Below, in pieces: positions 16,674 to 54,195 of a DNA stretch of 64,000 bases. The notes beneath the pieces are model-generated. The model saw nothing but the letters and a program-made list of their open reading frames with translations. It was not told where the DNA came from and did no database searches. Position 1 is the stretch's first letter. Each line of letters starts with the position of its first letter. The DNA is taken from assembly GCA_963844965.1 (NCBI GenBank), contig CAWJQC010000007.1:96001-160000 (forward strand). The letters run 5' to 3'. Source of the DNA: an uncultured bacterium. GTDB lineage: Bacteria; Patescibacteriota; Minisyncoccia; UBA6257; 2-01-FULL-56-20. The position numbers and the translations under genes are program-made.

Positions 16674-17420
16674 ATGAAAATAAGGAACATCGGCGCGGGG
16701 AAGGCAACAGTCCTCGTGGGCGTTCTCAAGCGCAAGCGGGATTTGGACATATTTCTCAAAGAACATTGGTATAGGATCCCGCTTCTTAAAGTGCCCAAGC
16801 GGAAGTTTCGTTATTTGGCGCTGTACGAACCGGCGCGCTTTGGACGGCGAAGCAAGTGCATCAGATATTACGCCCGCGTCGCGCGGTGCCTTGTGGAGAA
16901 GCGGCGCGAACTGCTGCCGGACGAAAGGGAGCATCCGAACGCCGAAGAGAGGTATCTGAGGATTCGCGTCGGCAGGGTCACGCGGTTGCCGCGGCCAATT
17001 CGGAACGTGCCGCCGCGCCGCCTGTCTTTCGGTTTCGCCGACCTTGACCGGCTGCTTGCCGTGAAGACCATTTTACAGCTTTACCACGTCGCTCCGACCG
17101 AGGAGATCGTCGGCGCGGCGCTCAAGCGTTCTCACATCCGCGCCATTCCCCAGTGCCATGTTTCGTGCGCCGGGAAACATTACTGTTTGGATTTCGCGGT
17201 CCATTGCGAACGCGGCTCAATTGCCGTTGAGTGCGACAATAAGAAAGCGCATGCCGGCGCCCGCCAGCAAGCGTACGATAGCGCCAAAGACACTTTTCTT
17301 TTTAATCATGGCTGGACGGTCATCCGGCTGAAGGAGGAAGCGATACTCTCCGATGTCCAATCCTGTGTTTTGCGGATACGGCGCGCCATAAAAAACTTCG
17401 GTGGAATGGCCTGTCGGTAG
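16674..17420 (+). CDS. DUF559 (Vsr-like PD-(D/E)xK endonuclease) domain protein with N-terminal extension
   Basis: C-terminal block YCLDFAVHCERGSIAVECDNKKAH ... FLFNHGWTVIRL typical of DUF559/Vsr-like domains. Confidence 0.55.
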   Translation: MKIRNIGAGKATVLVGVLKRKRDLDIFLKEHWYRIPLLKVPKRKFRYLALYEPARFGRRSKCIRYYARVARCLVEKRRELLPDEREHPNAEERYLRIRVGRVTRLPRPIRNVPPRRLSFGFADLDRLLAVKTILQLYHVAPTEEIVGAALKRSHIRAIPQCHVSCAGKHYCLDFAVHCERGSIAVECDNKKAHAGARQQAYDSAKDTFLFNHGWTVIRLKEEAILSDVQSCVLRIRRAIKNFGGMACR

Positions 17421-17578
17421 TTGCCAGAAATTCGCGCCGCCATAAAAATTTCCGCGGGTGTTTGCCTGCTGGTAGGGCGGTTATGTTTTCGGATTTTTTC
17501 CGATTTCGTTTCCGCCGAGGGCGGATTAGCTTCCGATAGAAACCTACGGCGAGCCGTCGGGTAATTCAAGCGTCCTCA

Positions 17579-18367
17579 CCGCCCGCCGGTTAACAATTGT
17601 TAACCGGCGGGCGGGAAGAGCAGGGTGTAATGAGGCGCGTAGCTCACCTGGCTGCTAATGGCGCGGCGCGATTTTCTCGCGCTAATTTCCGGGATGCGAA
17701 CCATTTCAGGATTTTCGGCAGATCGTTTTTGCTGATAACAAAAGCCCTCCCGATGCGGGTTGCCGGAATTCTCTTTTTGTCTATATTTTTGAAAACCGCG
17801 ACGCGGCTGATGCCCAAAACTTTCGCAAGTTCCGCCGTGGATATGAATTCCTTGTTGATCTCGTCCGCCATTCTCCGCATTTTCATTTTTCCACCTTAGC
17901 ACAATATCCGCGGGTTAACAATTGTTAACTTTGTCGGAATGGTAATCGGCCATAGTTAAAATCATAGTCAAAATGGTGGCTCATCTAGTGATTTGCCTCT
18001 GGTTGGGGGCTCTGAGTATCAACCAGTACCGGTTAACAATTGTTAACTTTGTCAGAATAGTGATTTGACATAGTTAGAACAATTAGAATGGTGACCTGCC
18101 ATAGTCGCATAGTCACGTGGCTCGTCCTTGGTGGTGGACTTTGGGCATCAATCGGCGCGGGTTAACAATTGTTAACTTTGTCAGAATGGTAATCTGTAGC
18201 CGGCGGGATCTCTGGCGGAGTCCTCCGCCAGGGGCGTGGTATCCCGGACATCAACTGGCGCCGGTTAACAATTGTTAACCGAGCAACAGAAAACAAAACC
18301 GAGAAAAAATCCCCCCAGTCATTTTTTCATCGTTTTTCCGTCCGCAGGTTAACAATTGTTAACCTGC
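17579..18367. repeat. array of six copies of the perfect palindrome GTTAACAATTGTTAAC, within degenerate tandem units of about 120 bp
   Basis: Core copies at 17589, 17913, 18031, 18161, 18264 and 18348. First copy extends to a 36-bp perfect palindrome (17579-17614), fifth to 20 bp, sixth to 24 bp. Units 2-4 share TTTGTCrGAATrGTrAT after the core and CATCAAyCrG before the next one. Confidence 0.85.
17644..17886 (-). CDS. excisionase/MerR-type helix-turn-helix DNA-binding protein
   Basis: 80 aa. ISTAELAKVLGISRVAVFKNIDKKRIPATRIGRAFVISKNDL matches the Xis/AlpA-family HTH_17 pattern. Confidence 0.6.
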   Translation of the reverse strand: MKMRRMADEINKEFISTAELAKVLGISRVAVFKNIDKKRIPATRIGRAFVISKNDLPKILKWFASRKLARENRAAPLAAR

Positions 18368-18484
18368 ACTGTGCGCTGCCTGTTGACTATTACTGACTAT
18401 TAAAAAATGCGGGTAGATAAAGCGAGCACGGTATGGAGTTGGGGCCGCTTGACGATGCGCGGTCGCGGTGTTAATTTCATAAAT

Positions 18485-39374: not shown

Positions 39375-40763
39375 ATGGATAATAATCCTATGCCAGTTCC
39401 GCCGGAATTAAGCTTGCCGCCTCGTCCGCGTTCTTCGCGAGTAAAATGGATTTTAGTCATCCTCATCGTGATTGTAGCGGTCGGCGCCGGTTTTTACTTC
39501 GGGTCAGCGAGGCGCGCTCAGGAACTTTATTCCGGCGGCACCGAGCCCGTCGGATCAATTCAGAAACTCCAAAGTAATTTTTCTTACAAGCCCTGCGTCC
39601 AAGCCAGTTCTTCGGATGCCATCGGCGCCCTCGTGAATGCCAACAATTGCTTTGCTTTCAACGCGTACGAGGATATTAAAGAATCATCCAATGGAAATAT
39701 TTTTTTCTCACCCTACAGTATCTCTGAAGCGGCCGGAATGGTGTATGAAGGAGCACGAGGCGAGACTGCGTTGCAGATACAGAACGTATTTGAGTTTCCC
39801 GATAACGCCGACGCCAGAAAATCGGCACTACTCGCAATATACAACGATTTGAATTCTACAAGCAGCGAGTATGCGTTAAATGTCGCGAATGCGGTGTGGG
39901 TAGAGCGCGATTTTCCGATTCTGGATGATTACTTGAGCACCGTCCGGCAATACTACGGCGGCGAAGCAACGAATCTTGATTTTGCCGGCAATCCCGGGCA
40001 AGCGACGGACGCAGTAAATAAGTGGGTCTCGGACAAAACCAGCGGCAAGATTCCGACGCTTTTTGACGGTCCTCTGAGCCAGCAGGCCAAACTTGTTCTT
40101 ACGGACGCCATTTATTTCAAAGGTTCCTGGGCTCACGCCTTTGAGGCCGGTCAAACGAAACCAGCGACGTTTCGCCCGATGGGAGGAGCGAGCGTTCAAG
40201 TCCCAACAATGCAGTCGGTCGGATCGGATAACGAGTACGCTTACGCCGAAACGGACGACCTCCAATTATTGGAGCTGCCCTATAAAGGGAACAAGTTGGA
40301 TATGGTGATTATTTTGCCGAAGAGCGACGATCCTTCGCACGTTGAAAGTTTGCTCTCGCCGCAAAATCTCACCGACTGGGAAAGGCAGGCTTTTAGCCGG
40401 AAGGTTGACATGTATATTCCGAAATTCACATTTAGCGAAGGATACGATCTTGGTCAGCTGCTTCAGGGGATGGGCATGACACTGGCCTTCGATTCGCATC
40501 CGGGGATAGCCGATTTTTCCGGAATTGACGGCAAAAAAGACCTTTACATTGACGTCGCAGTTCACAAAGCGTTCGTTGCCGTGGACGAAAAAGGAACGGA
40601 GGCTGCCGCGGCGACAGGCTTCGGTTTCGCTCCGACGATGGCTGTTTTCGTGCCGCCTCCGCGAGTAATTTTCCGCGCCGACCACCCGTTTATCTTTTTA
40701 ATTCAGGATGTTGAAAACGGCGACATTCTTTTCTTGGGCAAAGTCGTGGATCCTAAAAGTTAA
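39375..40763 (+). CDS. serpin (serine protease inhibitor) with N-terminal membrane anchor
   Basis: FSPYSISEAAGMVYEGARGET, NAVWVERDF, NAIYFKGSW and hinge/signature FRADHPFIFLIQD. Confidence 0.8.
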   Translation: MDNNPMPVPPELSLPPRPRSSRVKWILVILIVIVAVGAGFYFGSARRAQELYSGGTEPVGSIQKLQSNFSYKPCVQASSSDAIGALVNANNCFAFNAYEDIKESSNGNIFFSPYSISEAAGMVYEGARGETALQIQNVFEFPDNADARKSALLAIYNDLNSTSSEYALNVANAVWVERDFPILDDYLSTVRQYYGGEATNLDFAGNPGQATDAVNKWVSDKTSGKIPTLFDGPLSQQAKLVLTDAIYFKGSWAHAFEAGQTKPATFRPMGGASVQVPTMQSVGSDNEYAYAETDDLQLLELPYKGNKLDMVIILPKSDDPSHVESLLSPQNLTDWERQAFSRKVDMYIPKFTFSEGYDLGQLLQGMGMTLAFDSHPGIADFSGIDGKKDLYIDVAVHKAFVAVDEKGTEAAAATGFGFAPTMAVFVPPPRVIFRADHPFIFLIQDVENGDILFLGKVVDPKS

Positions 40764-51150: not shown

Positions 51151-54100
51151 ATGAAGAAGTATAACTTCGGAGAAATAGAGAAAAAGTGGCAGGAGGCGTG
51201 GGAGAAAGAAGAGCTTTACCGTGCCGACGACAAGAGCAAGAGAGAAAAAAAATATGTTCTGATTGAATTTCCGTATCCGTCTGGCGAGGGGCTACACATG
51301 GGGCACCTCCGGCCTTATGTTGCTGGAGACGTTTATAGCCGCCATTTGCGGATGTGCGGATATGAAGTTATGTATCCTATCGGCTGGGACGCGTTCGGAC
51401 TGCCCGCGGAGAACTATGCCATCAAGAACGGAATTCAACCGTCAATCTCAACGGCGCGGAACGTGAAAAATGCGAAGCAGCAGCTCAAAAGCTGGGGGAT
51501 GGGTTTTGACTGGTCGCGCGAGATAAATACGACCGACCCGAATTACTATAAATGGACACAGTGGATATTCCTGCAGCTTTGGAAAGCCGGCCTGGCTTAT
51601 GAAGCCACCGGTCTTATAAATTGGTGCCCGAAGGACAAAACCGGTTTGGCGAATGAGGAGGTAATTAACGGTTGCTGCGAGCGTTGCGGGGCGCTCGTGG
51701 AAAAAAAGGAAATGCGGCAGTGGTACCTCAAAATTACCGCCTACGCCGAAAAACTCTTGGAAGGTTTGAAGACGCTTGATTGGCCGGAAAAAATAAAAGT
51801 TCAGCAGGAAAACTGGATCGGCCGTTCGGAAGGAGCGGAAATAGATTTTGAAGTCGCTGGGCAAAAACCGAAGAAGGTAATATTGATGCATGGGAAAGAT
51901 GCAAATCCTGACGAAAAGTGGTATCCGTGGCTTGCGGAAGAAGTTCAAGAGCGCTGTACTAAATTTATTGCGCCTCGTCTGCCGGAATCCGACAATCCCG
52001 AACTTGAAGCATGGCTTCGTGAAATAGAAAAAGCGAATCCCGATGAAGATACTATTCTTATTGGACATTCTCGCGGTGGGGTGGCGATTTTGAGGTGGCT
52101 GGAAAATCTTAGGTCGGGGAAAGTCGTTAAAAAGGTAATAATAGTAGCTTCGGACAGGGGAGATGCCAAAAAGGAATCGCGGGGTTTTTTTGGCAAACCC
52201 TACGATTTCAAAAAAATACGGTCTCATTGCGACAGTTTTGTTGTTCTACATTCAAGGGACGATGAATGGGTGCCATTTGAAGCGGGTGAATATATTGCCA
52301 AAAATCTGAACGCCAACTTTTTGATTTTTGACGGCAGGGGACACTTCGGAAAAAAATTGCCAAAACAGGAAATTTCCGAACTCGTTGGTGAAATTTTTCC
52401 GAGTATCAAGGTTTTCACCACCCGCCCCGACACGCTTTTCGGTGCGACGTATATGGTTTTGTCGCCGGAACACGAACTTATATTAAAAATTAAAAATCAA
52501 ATATTAAATTGGGGGGAAGTTGAAAAATATATAAAAGTTGCTCAGGGCAAATCAGAGGAAGAACGTATTGCCGAAGGAAAGGAAAAAACCGGCGTGGAGC
52601 TCAAAGGAATCAAGGCGATTAATCCGGCGACGAAGGAAGAAGTTCCCATTTGGGTGGCGGATTATGTGCTTGCGGGATATGGCACGGGCGCGATCATGGC
52701 TGTGCCGGCGCACGACGAACGGGATTTTGAATTTGCGAAGAGGTATAAATTACCGATCAGGGAAGTTATAGCCCCGCTATTTATCGAGAAAGGAGGTCTA
52801 GATGCTTGGAGAGAGACCGGTGTTACAAAAAAACGCAACACAGTCAGTTGTATCATCAAACATTGGTCCGAGGATAAGTACCTTTGTCTGCGCTGGGTGC
52901 ACGATAACTGGCGCGGATTTGTAATCGGTGGCGTGGAAGGTGGCGAAGACATCATAGAAGCTGCCTGTAGGGAAATACGAGAAGAAACCGGATTCAAGAA
53001 TGTAAAATTTATAAAAGTACTTGGAAACGAGATTCACTATAAATTTTTTGCCTCCCATAAAAACGAAAACAGATGGAATGTTGGTCACGGGATTTATTTC
53101 GAACTCTTGAATGGCGAAAGTGATGAAATTTCTGAACAAGAAAAGAAATTGCATAGCGTTGTGTGGATTGATAAGGATAAAGTGGCCGATTTTATCGCCA
53201 ACGACCCCAGCGATTCTTTGTTGTGGGAGCGCCTTAATGGCGTATCGCGGCCGTTTATTGAGGAAGGAGTTCTGGTTGGTTCTGATAAATTCACCGGTAT
53301 GAATTCCGAAAAAGCCAAATGGGAAATTACGAAACTCGTCGGTGGGAAGAAACAAATTCAATATCGCCTGCGCGACTGGGTTTTTTCGCGCCAGCGCTAT
53401 TGGGGCGAGCCGATTCCGCTCGTCCACTGCGCGAAGTGCGGGATTGTTCCCGTGCCGGAAGAGGAATTGCCGCTGAAACTCCCGGAAGTGGAGAAATACG
53501 AACCTACCGGCACCGGCGAATCGCCGCTTGCTGCCGTGGATTCCTGGGTGAATACAAAGTGTCCTGAGTGCGGCGGGAGAGCGAAACGTGAAACTAACAC
53601 CATGCCGCAGTGGGCCGGAAGTTCGTGGTATTACCTCGCATACATAATGCGAGGAATTTCCCCGCCCGCGCCGACGCTTCGGCGGGCAGGCAATTTCCCC
53701 GCCAAAGGCGAGGCTAGCCAAGAGCTACAATTTCCAATTTCCAAATATCAAGAAGCTTTTAGGCATTGGCTGCCGGTTGACGTTTATTTCGGCGGCATGG
53801 AGCATACGACGCTTCATCTTCTTTATTCGCGGTTTTGGCACCAATTTCTCTACGATAAAAAATTCGTGCCGACGCCGGAACCTTATCTGCGTCGCGTGCC
53901 GCACGGGATAATTCTCGGTCCCGACGGCGAGAAGATGTCTAAAAGCCGCGGCAATATCGTGAGTCCCGACGAAATCGTGAAAAATTTTGGAGCGGATTGC
54001 CTCCGCATGTACGAACTATTCCTTGGTCCGCACGAGGCGACGGTTAGCTGGAAAAGCGAGGGCATTTTGGGGATTTCGCGGTTTCTGGAGCGCGTTTGGA

Positions 54101-54195
54101 AATTCTATGGAGTAATCGCGAATAATGCGAACCATGGACAAAATAATGCGAATGTTACAAGAAATTTACAACGGACGATCAAAAAAGATCACTGA
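51151..54195 (+). CDS. leuS: leucyl-tRNA synthetase carrying inserted serine-hydrolase and Nudix domains (main part, before +1 frameshift)
   Basis: HMGHLRPY (HIGH), NWIGRSEGAEIDF, TTRPDTLFGATY, AHDERDFEFA, YRLRDWVFSRQRYWGEPIP, KMSKSRGN. Insert 1 at about 51859-52401 (GHSRGG, D, H triad). Insert 2 at about 52783-53257 (Nudix box GGVEGGEDIIEAACREIREETGF). Confidence 0.9.
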   Translation: MKKYNFGEIEKKWQEAWEKEELYRADDKSKREKKYVLIEFPYPSGEGLHMGHLRPYVAGDVYSRHLRMCGYEVMYPIGWDAFGLPAENYAIKNGIQPSISTARNVKNAKQQLKSWGMGFDWSREINTTDPNYYKWTQWIFLQLWKAGLAYEATGLINWCPKDKTGLANEEVINGCCERCGALVEKKEMRQWYLKITAYAEKLLEGLKTLDWPEKIKVQQENWIGRSEGAEIDFEVAGQKPKKVILMHGKDANPDEKWYPWLAEEVQERCTKFIAPRLPESDNPELEAWLREIEKANPDEDTILIGHSRGGVAILRWLENLRSGKVVKKVIIVASDRGDAKKESRGFFGKPYDFKKIRSHCDSFVVLHSRDDEWVPFEAGEYIAKNLNANFLIFDGRGHFGKKLPKQEISELVGEIFPSIKVFTTRPDTLFGATYMVLSPEHELILKIKNQILNWGEVEKYIKVAQGKSEEERIAEGKEKTGVELKGIKAINPATKEEVPIWVADYVLAGYGTGAIMAVPAHDERDFEFAKRYKLPIREVIAPLFIEKGGLDAWRETGVTKKRNTVSCIIKHWSEDKYLCLRWVHDNWRGFVIGGVEGGEDIIEAACREIREETGFKNVKFIKVLGNEIHYKFFASHKNENRWNVGHGIYFELLNGESDEISEQEKKLHSVVWIDKDKVADFIANDPSDSLLWERLNGVSRPFIEEGVLVGSDKFTGMNSEKAKWEITKLVGGKKQIQYRLRDWVFSRQRYWGEPIPLVHCAKCGIVPVPEEELPLKLPEVEKYEPTGTGESPLAAVDSWVNTKCPECGGRAKRETNTMPQWAGSSWYYLAYIMRGISPPAPTLRRAGNFPAKGEASQELQFPISKYQEAFRHWLPVDVYFGGMEHTTLHLLYSRFWHQFLYDKKFVPTPEPYLRRVPHGIILGPDGEKMSKSRGNIVSPDEIVKNFGADCLRMYELFLGPHEATVSWKSEGILGISRFLERVWKFYGVIANNANHGQNNANVTRNLQRTIKKDH

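Follow-up and report, generated by a model that had tools for sequence, protein, structure and literature searches.

The palindrome array and the gene it brackets

The sequence analysed here is a 64,000-nucleotide stretch of contig CAWJQC010000007.1 (positions 96,001 to 160,000; assembly GCA_963844965.1) from an uncultured bacterium of the Patescibacteriota, and this whole stretch is referred to as the window. Between a DUF559 gene and a gene for a membrane-anchored protein it carries six exact copies of a 16-bp perfect palindrome, GTTAACAATTGTTAAC, on both sides of a small gene for an 80-residue helix-turn-helix (HTH) protein. The copies fall within 790 bp and start at 17589, 17914, 18032, 18161, 18264 and 18348, giving start-to-start spacings of 325, 118, 129, 103 and 84 bp. 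A first-pass annotation of the window had counted six identical palindromes, and the 64 kb indeed hold six exact copies and none else. Four of its six start positions also stand, while copies 2 and 3, given as 17913 and 18031, begin at 17914 and 18032, and its spacings of 324 and 130 bp become 325 and 129 bp, those of 118, 103 and 84 bp being right. No seventh match was found elsewhere in the window with up to 3 mismatches allowed, shuffled controls gave a figure of 0.27 matches, and not one of the 100 shuffles attained six.

Each 16-mer is a pair of GTTAAC hexamers set 10 bp, or one helical turn, apart. The pattern GTTAAC-N4-GTTAAC, with 2 mismatches allowed, returns the same six sites only. 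The window has 15 GTTAAC hexamers, and 12 of them lie inside the array. Since the hexamer is itself palindromic, its orientation (head-to-tail direct repeats or not) is unreadable from the sequence.

Two further loci carry a homologous gene together with the palindromes. L159 is a 674-bp contig from ENA that is syntenic with the window, encodes a 99% identical HTH protein and holds three operators, as the palindromes are called from here on; L001 is a JGI contig whose HTH homologue shares 73% identity and which has ten palindromes, six exact and four with 1 mismatch. The first-pass annotation had asked whether copy number differs between homologous loci, and it does (six in the window, ten in L001, three in L159). 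The window and L001 are saturated at synonymous sites, and the gene and the palindromes are the only parts of the two loci that can be aligned.

The DNA between the upstream operators falls into units, of which U2 to U4 are homologous to one another. Outside the palindromes these share 55-66% identity (55-72% when the L159 unit is included), so the description "degenerate tandem array" was a fair one; Tandem Repeats Finder returns no repeat here because U2 to U4 have diverged too far. All 96 operator positions in the window are intact, amid adjoining DNA that is 28-45% diverged. The end blocks of U2 are conserved, TTTGTCGGAATGGTAATC on the left beside operator copy 2 and ATCAACCAGTACCG on the right beside operator copy 3. 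As to the two flanks that had been described as shared, TTTGTCrGAATrGTrAT is present at copies 2-4, while CATCAAyCrG is only approximate, reading tATCAACCAG in one copy and CATCAACTGG in another. Each distal operator is followed by what looks like a degenerate copy of the HTH promoter's -10 region (GrTTGATG, against GATATTGTG). Unit U5 is of another type; a terminator scan matches it at 18320-18297 (-), L001 792-889 is weakly similar to it, and it may serve to insulate the array from the gene next to it. The most distal operator, copy 6, has an orthologous site in L159, and the outermost palindromes, taken together with the flanks on their inner sides, make up an inverted repeat of 33 nt and 88% identity.

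The number of operators changes over short distances. Upstream of the gene there are five in the window and two in L159, at a synonymous divergence (dS) of 0.30, and in L001 a palindrome-bearing unit of 66 bp is repeated 2.3 times at 92% identity, the mark of a recent tandem duplication. The copy difference with L159, this 92% repeat, the homology of the units and the degenerate -10 copies together argue that such arrays expand and contract through tandem duplication of an operator/promoter unit, with the operators staying intact.

The bracketed gene had been called an excisionase-type HTH gene, and its product passes the cutoffs of both profile libraries applied (31.5 bits against 27 for PF12728, HTH_17; 36.3 bits against 28.8 for TIGR01764, "excise"). 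An AlphaFold2 model (mean confidence, pLDDT, 78.6) gives a beta-alpha-alpha-beta-beta winged-helix core (E14-16, H17-24, H28-36, E43-45, E48-52) followed by a C-terminal helix. Foldseek matches it to RacA, RdfS, Pukovnik Xis and BldC at a probability of 1.0, though with E-values of only ~0.03-0.15, and pSK1 Par is a further structural neighbour; by sequence, the best PDB match is Pukovnik Xis, at a marginal E = 0.003. Compared with L159, the gene has dS 0.30 and a non-synonymous divergence (dN) of 0.006, and this dN/dS of 0.02 argues for a functional gene under strong purifying selection, free of decay.

The predicted promoter of the HTH gene has its -35 hexamer and spacer inside operator copy 2, and a Shine-Dalgarno sequence, AAGGTGG, follows at 17891-17897. 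Counterpart promoters are found in L159 (TTAACA-N16-TATTGT) and L001 (TTAACA-N18-TAATGT). In L001 there is also a direct repeat, GGACATTTCTACTTTGC, present twice 25 bp apart (181-241) just upstream of the proximal operator; the window and L159 have paired rATyACCATTyTGAC blocks in a parallel arrangement, and the repeat may be a second binding motif.

At the other end of the gene, operator copy 1 lies within a 36-bp palindrome, correctly described in the first-pass annotation as perfect. It lies 30-39 nt past the HTH stop codon, and as RNA it folds at -44.7 kcal/mol (z = -7.5); no U-tract is seen at this hairpin. The palindrome probably doubles as distal operator and transcript-end hairpin. Its arms differ between the window/L159 lineage and L001 (CCGCCCGCCG versus TGCGTCG) yet remain self-complementary in each, which indicates that the hairpin after the stop codon is under selection. 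The positions of all features are collected in Table 1.

Table 1. Features of the array locus, in window coordinates.
Feature	Position	Strand	Remark
Accessory insertion of ~1.0 kb, HTH gene and six operators	17431..18447		Junction alignments, +/-20 bp
36-bp perfect palindrome holding operator copy 1 (17589-17604)	17579..17614		18-nt arms, 100% complementary
Gene for 80-aa winged-helix HTH_17 (excisionase/MerR-type) protein	17644..17886	-	Pfam and NCBIfam cutoffs passed
Predicted HTH promoter, TTAACA-N16-TATTGT	17901..17928	-	Promoter scan, consensus match only
Operator copy 2, gene-proximal	17914..17929		27 nt between its end and the HTH start codon
Unit U2	17930..18031		Aligns with U3, U4 and the L159 unit
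Operator copy 3	18032..18047		Exact 16-mer
Unit U3, homologue of U2, U4 and the unit in L159	18048..18160		Internal CATAGT/GAATGGTGA sub-repeats
Operator copy 4	18161..18176		Exact 16-mer
Unit U4, homologous to U2 and U3	18177..18263		Hairpin CTGGCGGAG..CTCCGCCAG, 9-bp stem
Operator copy 5	18264..18279		Exact 16-mer
Unit U5, other unit type, rich in A/T runs	18280..18347		Terminator-like hairpins, both strands
Operator copy 6, most distal	18348..18363		Inside 24-bp palindrome 18344-18367
Native promoter TTGACG-N17-TAATTT (18449-18477) and 160-aa membrane-anchored Paceibacterota protein (ORF160, ATG 18485)	18449..18967	+	

A probable operator shared with HTH_17/Doc toxin-antitoxin loci

The bare 16-mer was scanned across 185,579 species-representative genomes (596 Gb) and occurs there at at least 120 loci, nearly all of those listed being single-copy and from very diverse taxa. 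By our own estimate about 140 occurrences would be expected by chance, roughly as many as were listed. Thus the 16-mer, which the first-pass annotation had suggested looking for elsewhere, does recur in other genomes, though not in the rest of the 64 kb. What sets a part of these loci apart is the gene beside them: at 21 of the at least 120 listed, a homologue of the window protein (by tblastn) starts 8-101 nt downstream. These 21 belong to Patescibacteria, Omnitrophota, Nitrospirae, Elusimicrobiota and one gammaproteobacterium. In sequences of up to 8 kb around them, nearly all GTTAAC hexamers lie within 120 bp upstream of the HTH_17 gene, with 2-6 in each promoter. An intact gene for a Doc toxin of ~141 residues, with the motif HPFQNGNKR, follows directly downstream at 19 of the 21, and the one representative Doc protein that was scanned passes the TIGR01550 cutoff.

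The promoters of these canonical loci share an architecture in which a TTGACt -35 hexamer stands 5 nt ahead of the palindrome, the palindrome fills the spacer, and its final four bases open a TAACnT -10 element. In some of them the full GTTAAC-N4-GTTAAC site is present two or three times, at a spacing of 27-29 bp and with a variable N4. Two perfect 16-mers lie 28 bp apart in an Omnitrophota locus (L065, 4175-4218), and three sites with differing N4 follow one another at 29-bp spacing in an elusimicrobial one (L074, 589-662). When homologues were chosen by protein alone, two (L002, L006) again carried a 1-mismatch copy with flanking hexamers, and three (L160, L162, L166) retained sets of GTTAAC hexamers. 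The recognition helix, (G)ISRVAVF, is invariant throughout the family, including the window, L001 and L159. The occurrence of the 16-mer in HTH_17 promoters, the Doc gene downstream and the motif near homologues selected by protein argue, as a phylogenetic footprint, that GTTAAC-N4-GTTAAC is the conserved operator of a family of HTH_17-antitoxin/Doc toxin-antitoxin (TA) loci. A literature search found nothing on this operator or on an HTH_17 or excisionase-type antitoxin paired with Doc, and the family is apparently uncharacterised so far.

The same comparison bears on the array in the window. Because the 16-mer sits in the HTH_17 promoters of 21 genomes and the homologues in L001 and L159 come with arrays of their own, the six palindromes are most likely binding sites of the adjacent HTH protein, and this proposal of the first-pass annotation thereby gains strong comparative support.

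Canonical members of the family are 83-93 residues long and end in a C-terminal tail, K..I..AVKKTVKEYGETLKLLGKE (KEYGETLKLLG). The proteins of the window, L001 and L159 stop before this tail; in the alignment, those that end without it are the window protein, P0001 and P0002. In Phd/Doc systems the C-terminus of the antitoxin neutralises Doc, and for this reason the lost tail is probably the toxin-binding part. Nor does a co-directional Doc gene follow the window HTH gene, whose 3' side consists of the hairpin and then the convergent DUF559 gene. The sole Doc-domain gene nearby (19142-20107) is on the opposite strand, 1.25 kb off, in a separate insertion past a native gene. From the make-up of an HTH_17/Doc module the window therefore retains the operator in the gene's own promoter and has neither a downstream toxin nor the C-terminal tail. 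Taken together, these features point to descent of the window HTH protein from the antitoxin of such a module, with loss of the tail and the toxin gene.

This short, solo type has a layout of its own. In the window, L001 and L159 alike, one operator stops 27 nt short of the start codon, another lies 38-57 nt past the stop codon within a longer GC-rich palindrome, and extra operators are present; the extended 3' palindromes corresponding to that of the window are at 551-578 in L001 and ~503-538 in L159. This layout is lacking in the canonical loci. Two protein searches for the short type returned P0001 and P0002 only, and an exhaustive protein library added other short forms (P0177, P0181).

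The wider family also includes larger proteins. In an Omnitrophota metagenome-assembled genome (JBFZAG010000073.1; L044, 2564-3643), the HTH_17 domain is fused to a cysteine-synthase-like domain of ~300 residues, and an exact 16-mer lies 18 nt ahead of the start of the fusion gene. The best-scoring relatives of the window protein among 1.84 billion representatives (P0143-P0163) are 160-250 residues long, with 3-4 tandem HTH_17 domains that retain the recognition helix GISRVAVFKRI; longer tandem proteins, lower in the list of relatives, have up to 8 domains. Such tandem proteins should read arrays of GTTAAC-like sites.

An accessory insertion in a chromosomal setting

Three sets of relatives, at 78%, 71% and 60% identity, are syntenic with the window here and have no module. 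In each, the ORF160 orthologue comes right after the upstream neighbour, and the counterpart of the 1063-aa gene of the window comes next. The upstream neighbour is the DUF559 gene in L167/L168 and L169/L170, where the ORF160 orthologue follows within 27-100 bp, and a different gene in L171. Neither the HTH gene nor the 16-mer occurs at the locus in any of the three sets; GTTAAC is found in L171 only (two) and not in the two closest sets. On this comparison the HTH gene with its six operators is an accessory insertion between two native genes. The boundaries, read by eye from junction alignments to about +/-20 bp, lie ~150 and ~85 bp beyond the outermost palindromes, and no target duplication is seen. 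At the left edge, the final ~42 nt of that gene's DUF559 neighbour (17380-17420) occur a second time just downstream, at 17433-17476, with ~70-80% identity by eye, which may be an insertion scar.

The native promoter to the right, conserved in L167, L169 and L159, and ORF160 behind it are context and lie outside the module. ORF160 has 256 homologues at E <= 0.001, including a 100%-identical copy on an NCBI contig of 331,718 bp. The neighbours named in the first-pass annotation, a DUF559/MTES_1575 nuclease-like gene and a RhuM plus Fic/Doc gene, were both confirmed. Its broader proposal of a mobile-element maintenance region holds in part: the ~1-kb insertion and the TA-derived family agree with it, while integrase, Rep and Par genes were not found nearby.

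The RhuM-Doc gene belongs to a second insertion of ~3.8 kb (~18970-22750), which is likewise missing from the syntenic relatives and carries genes at 19142-20107 (+), 20241-21062 (+) and 21037-22617 (-). RhuM-Doc itself (19142-20107) is a full-length match to the PADLOC defence candidate PDC-S23 (E = 1.7e-101). Alongside it are an unclassified open reading frame (ORF) whose PD..ExK-like motif makes it a putative nuclease, and a fusion of a LexA DNA-binding domain, an S24 peptidase and an N6/N4 methyltransferase, whose 3' end overlaps the PD..ExK-like ORF. This second insertion has the look of a defence islet whose restriction-modification controller is fused to LexA. A functional or direct regulatory link between RhuM-Doc and the array finds no support, there being no operator near the gene and a native gene between the two insertions; its Doc domain is 38% identical to the canonical Doc partners. 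GTTAAC is also the recognition site of HpaI, and a type II methyltransferase with a putative nuclease lies 2.3 kb away.

Elsewhere the window carries housekeeping genes, e.g., that for leucyl-tRNA synthetase (51151-54195, +), a protein of 1014 residues with internal Pfam Ser_hydrolase (aa 244-400) and NUDIX (aa 582-678) domains, insertions that are unusual within this enzyme. A full-length serpin (39375-40763, +; Pfam E = 1e-106) and a lamin-tail-domain protein (175-1539, +) are encoded as well, in what appears to be a Paceibacterota chromosome of the candidate phyla radiation (CPR). A single perfect DnaA box, TTATCCACA, lies at ~22658-22666, in the intergenic region ahead of the 1063-aa gene, where the GC skew gives no origin signal.

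Regulatory model, alternatives and known systems

We propose that the locus is an autorepression module, in which a solo repressor derived from a TA system acts through a clustered and possibly looping operator array. Protein bound at the proximal operator, which overlaps the -35 hexamer and spacer of the HTH promoter, would occlude RNA polymerase and thereby repress its own gene. Four more upstream operators would have arisen by tandem duplication of the operator/promoter unit, and a single downstream one would sit within the terminator-like hairpin. The extra sites could raise local occupancy and would probably permit binding that is cooperative or forms a loop around the gene, and the outcome would be tight, buffered self-control together with a reservoir of bound protein. 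Across the gene, the operators are 325, 315 and 304 bp apart in the three short-type loci, i.e., 30.95, 30.0 and 28.95 turns of 10.5 bp, which is suggestive only of a loop that preserves phase. Actual binding, repression and looping, as well as the reason for so many sites, are what we infer from these comparisons, and we hold the model as a whole to be probable, with room for doubt. Among the three candidates offered by the first-pass annotation, its autoregulated switch is the best fit.

Several points weigh against this model. The loop phasing comes from three loci, two of them related, and the three short-type loci represent two lineages, which bears on how general the arrangement is. The HTH promoter agrees with the consensus at 9/12 positions. 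Intervals of 84-129 bp separate the distal operators, far wider than the 27-29 bp of canonical promoters, and these operators overlap no convincing promoter in the window promoter scan, which leaves no obvious regulatory purpose for them; TTGACt at the family position is absent on both strands of the distal copies, the best being copy 3 (+) with 9/12. Two conserved flank blocks, rATyACCATTyTGACAAA and CCGGCGCCrGTTGATG, are left unaccounted for. Gene conversion, and not selection for binding alone, could also help to keep the copies identical.

This last point leads to the most serious rival, namely that the extra copies are neutral, with only the proximal operator, and perhaps the hairpin, at work, while slippage or unequal crossing-over multiplies the units and gene conversion keeps them alike. 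The change from five upstream copies to two at a dS of only 0.30, the recent duplication in L001, the decayed -10 copies in the distal units and the lack of a promoter or gene associated with the distal operators are all as such drift would leave them. It fits less well with 96 of 96 operator positions intact amid strongly diverged DNA, with the conserved blocks flanking each distal copy, or with the fact that the window and L001, although synonymously saturated, both keep multi-copy arrays in the same gene-bracketing layout. We judge neutral amplification to be unlikely, though less so than the other alternatives below.

Two further functions may be considered for the bound array. A tail-less antitoxin could not be titrated by toxin, and an array that holds it at high local copy might let it act in trans to silence for good any incoming HTH_17/Doc addiction module with the same, highly conserved operator, a form of anti-addiction immunity by operator mimicry; we regard this as a speculative idea with little likelihood. 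The array and its protein may also form a heritable, chromatin-like insulator beside the defence island.

The match to "excisionase family" models, with RdfS and Pukovnik Xis among the top folds, raises the question of whether the HTH protein is a recombination directionality factor, with the palindromes serving it as architectural sites where a small integrated element is attached. The module is an insertion, and its outermost palindromes do form the inverted repeat described above. However, the ORFs scanned (8.9-30 kb) include no integrase, recombinase or transposase, the boundaries fall well outside the palindromes with no target duplication, no tRNA is present at the site, and the nearest homologues are promoter-bound antitoxins rather than directionality factors, so that we consider a role in recombination or excision improbable. 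A centromere-like or DNA-anchoring locus bound by a MerR-type winged helix, after the manner of pSK1 Par or RacA, is less probable still. The DNA-binding domains of both are among the fold matches, and single-protein par loci such as pSK1 par have repeated sites upstream of the gene in a similar layout. Against this stand the chromosomal setting (leucyl-tRNA synthetase and other housekeeping genes, and the identical ORF160 on a long contig), flanks devoid of a ParA, ParM or TubZ NTPase, a protein of only 80 residues that has one helix at its C-terminus and lacks a long coiled-coil, the absence of the module from close relatives, and the TA ancestry of the family. Given the lack of a ParA or ParM gene and the chromosomal context, the partition site that had been put forward finds no support. 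The iteron origin that had also been suggested is highly improbable. The appearance of repeated intergenic sites is all that speaks for it, whereas no rep or dnaA gene is adjacent (the neighbours being the DUF559, membrane-protein and RhuM-Doc genes), there is no sign of an AT-rich unwinding element, TA promoters have these palindromic operators in common with the array, and the cumulative GC skew, one of the checks proposed for origin behaviour, climbs steadily through the site with no inflection at 17-19 kb.

Other readings were rejected as well. That the array is not CRISPR-like had been recognised at the outset and holds: the repeats measure 16 bp (as against 23-50 bp), what lies between them is 68-113 bp long within the array and 308 bp where it includes the HTH gene, three of these "spacers" are homologous, and no cas-family match was found among the ORFs scanned. 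For structured RNA, an Rfam scan of 17300-18700 (E <= 1) gave two sub-threshold matches to microRNA models, both caused by the palindromes, and the unit folds on both strands have z-scores of -0.4 to -2.7 where long palindrome-derived helices do not dominate. Small peptides in U2 and U3 were dismissed, the ORFs through the palindromes being conserved in neither frame nor sequence in the L159 unit. A search of metagenomes for arrays with two copies 60-90 bp apart returned only unrelated (GTTAACAATT)n satellites with a 10-bp period and no HTH gene. These have up to ~15 hexamers in phase and occur at L128 2160-2360, directly upstream of gyrB with no HTH_17 gene nearby, and at the contig ends of L129-L132. 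Viral contigs gave 26 single 16-mer matches, none with an HTH homologue, and a protein-pattern search of them found no HTH relatives; a DNA search of plasmids and a protein search of phages gave no match.

The comparison provides a testable operator, GTTAAC-N4-GTTAAC, for a widespread HTH_17-antitoxin/Doc family, and the locus shows a derived state in which the DNA-binding half of an antitoxin survives alone, strongly selected, with an expanded and copy-variable array of its own sites. A solo repressor of this kind would illustrate a possible path from addiction modules to stand-alone regulators. To our knowledge, hardly any regulation has been characterised in CPR bacteria; should the extra sites matter, the window would offer a compact natural case of auxiliary-operator, looping or titration control in this group, and if they do not, it would be a clean case of operator amplification via tandem duplication.

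The closest comparison is with the autoregulation of Phd/Doc-type TA systems. The window HTH protein is homologous to proteins in the antitoxin position directly upstream of Doc, and of the 1-3 palindromic operators that lie over the core promoter in the family, the window keeps one. It differs in its fold, which is HTH_17 and not Phd/YefM or AbrB, in having no toxin partner and no C-terminal tail, and in spreading six operators over 790 bp with one of them after the gene. The small winged-helix proteins BldC, lambda-type Xis, RdfS and mycobacteriophage D29 Gp36 resemble it in predicted fold and in size, and also in that one small protein serves multiple related sites, the binding in the window being predicted. 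RdfS multimerises on a repeat array and also autoregulates (PMC11963761), and Gp36 multimerises on repeats and represses from them (PMC12266134). However, these proteins bind closely packed direct repeats or regions of low specificity, whereas the palindromes of the window are perfect, 16 bp long and spaced at 84-325 bp. The window sites have no linked recombinase or developmental regulon, and sequence similarity to these proteins is marginal. The pSK1 par locus and RacA/ram also pair a MerR-like winged-helix protein with an array of cognate sites, which in pSK1 lie upstream of the protein's own gene, but the window module is chromosomal, missing from relatives, and has neither a coiled-coil nor a plasmid. 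In layout, the array comes close to auxiliary-operator looping as in lac (O1/O2/O3), gal (OE/OI) and deo, where a promoter operator is joined by auxiliary operators upstream and downstream of it or within the transcribed region. The cross-gene spacings, which differ by whole helical turns, would agree with such looping, here predicted from three loci only, with the difference that the auxiliary sites of the window, five in all, are more numerous.

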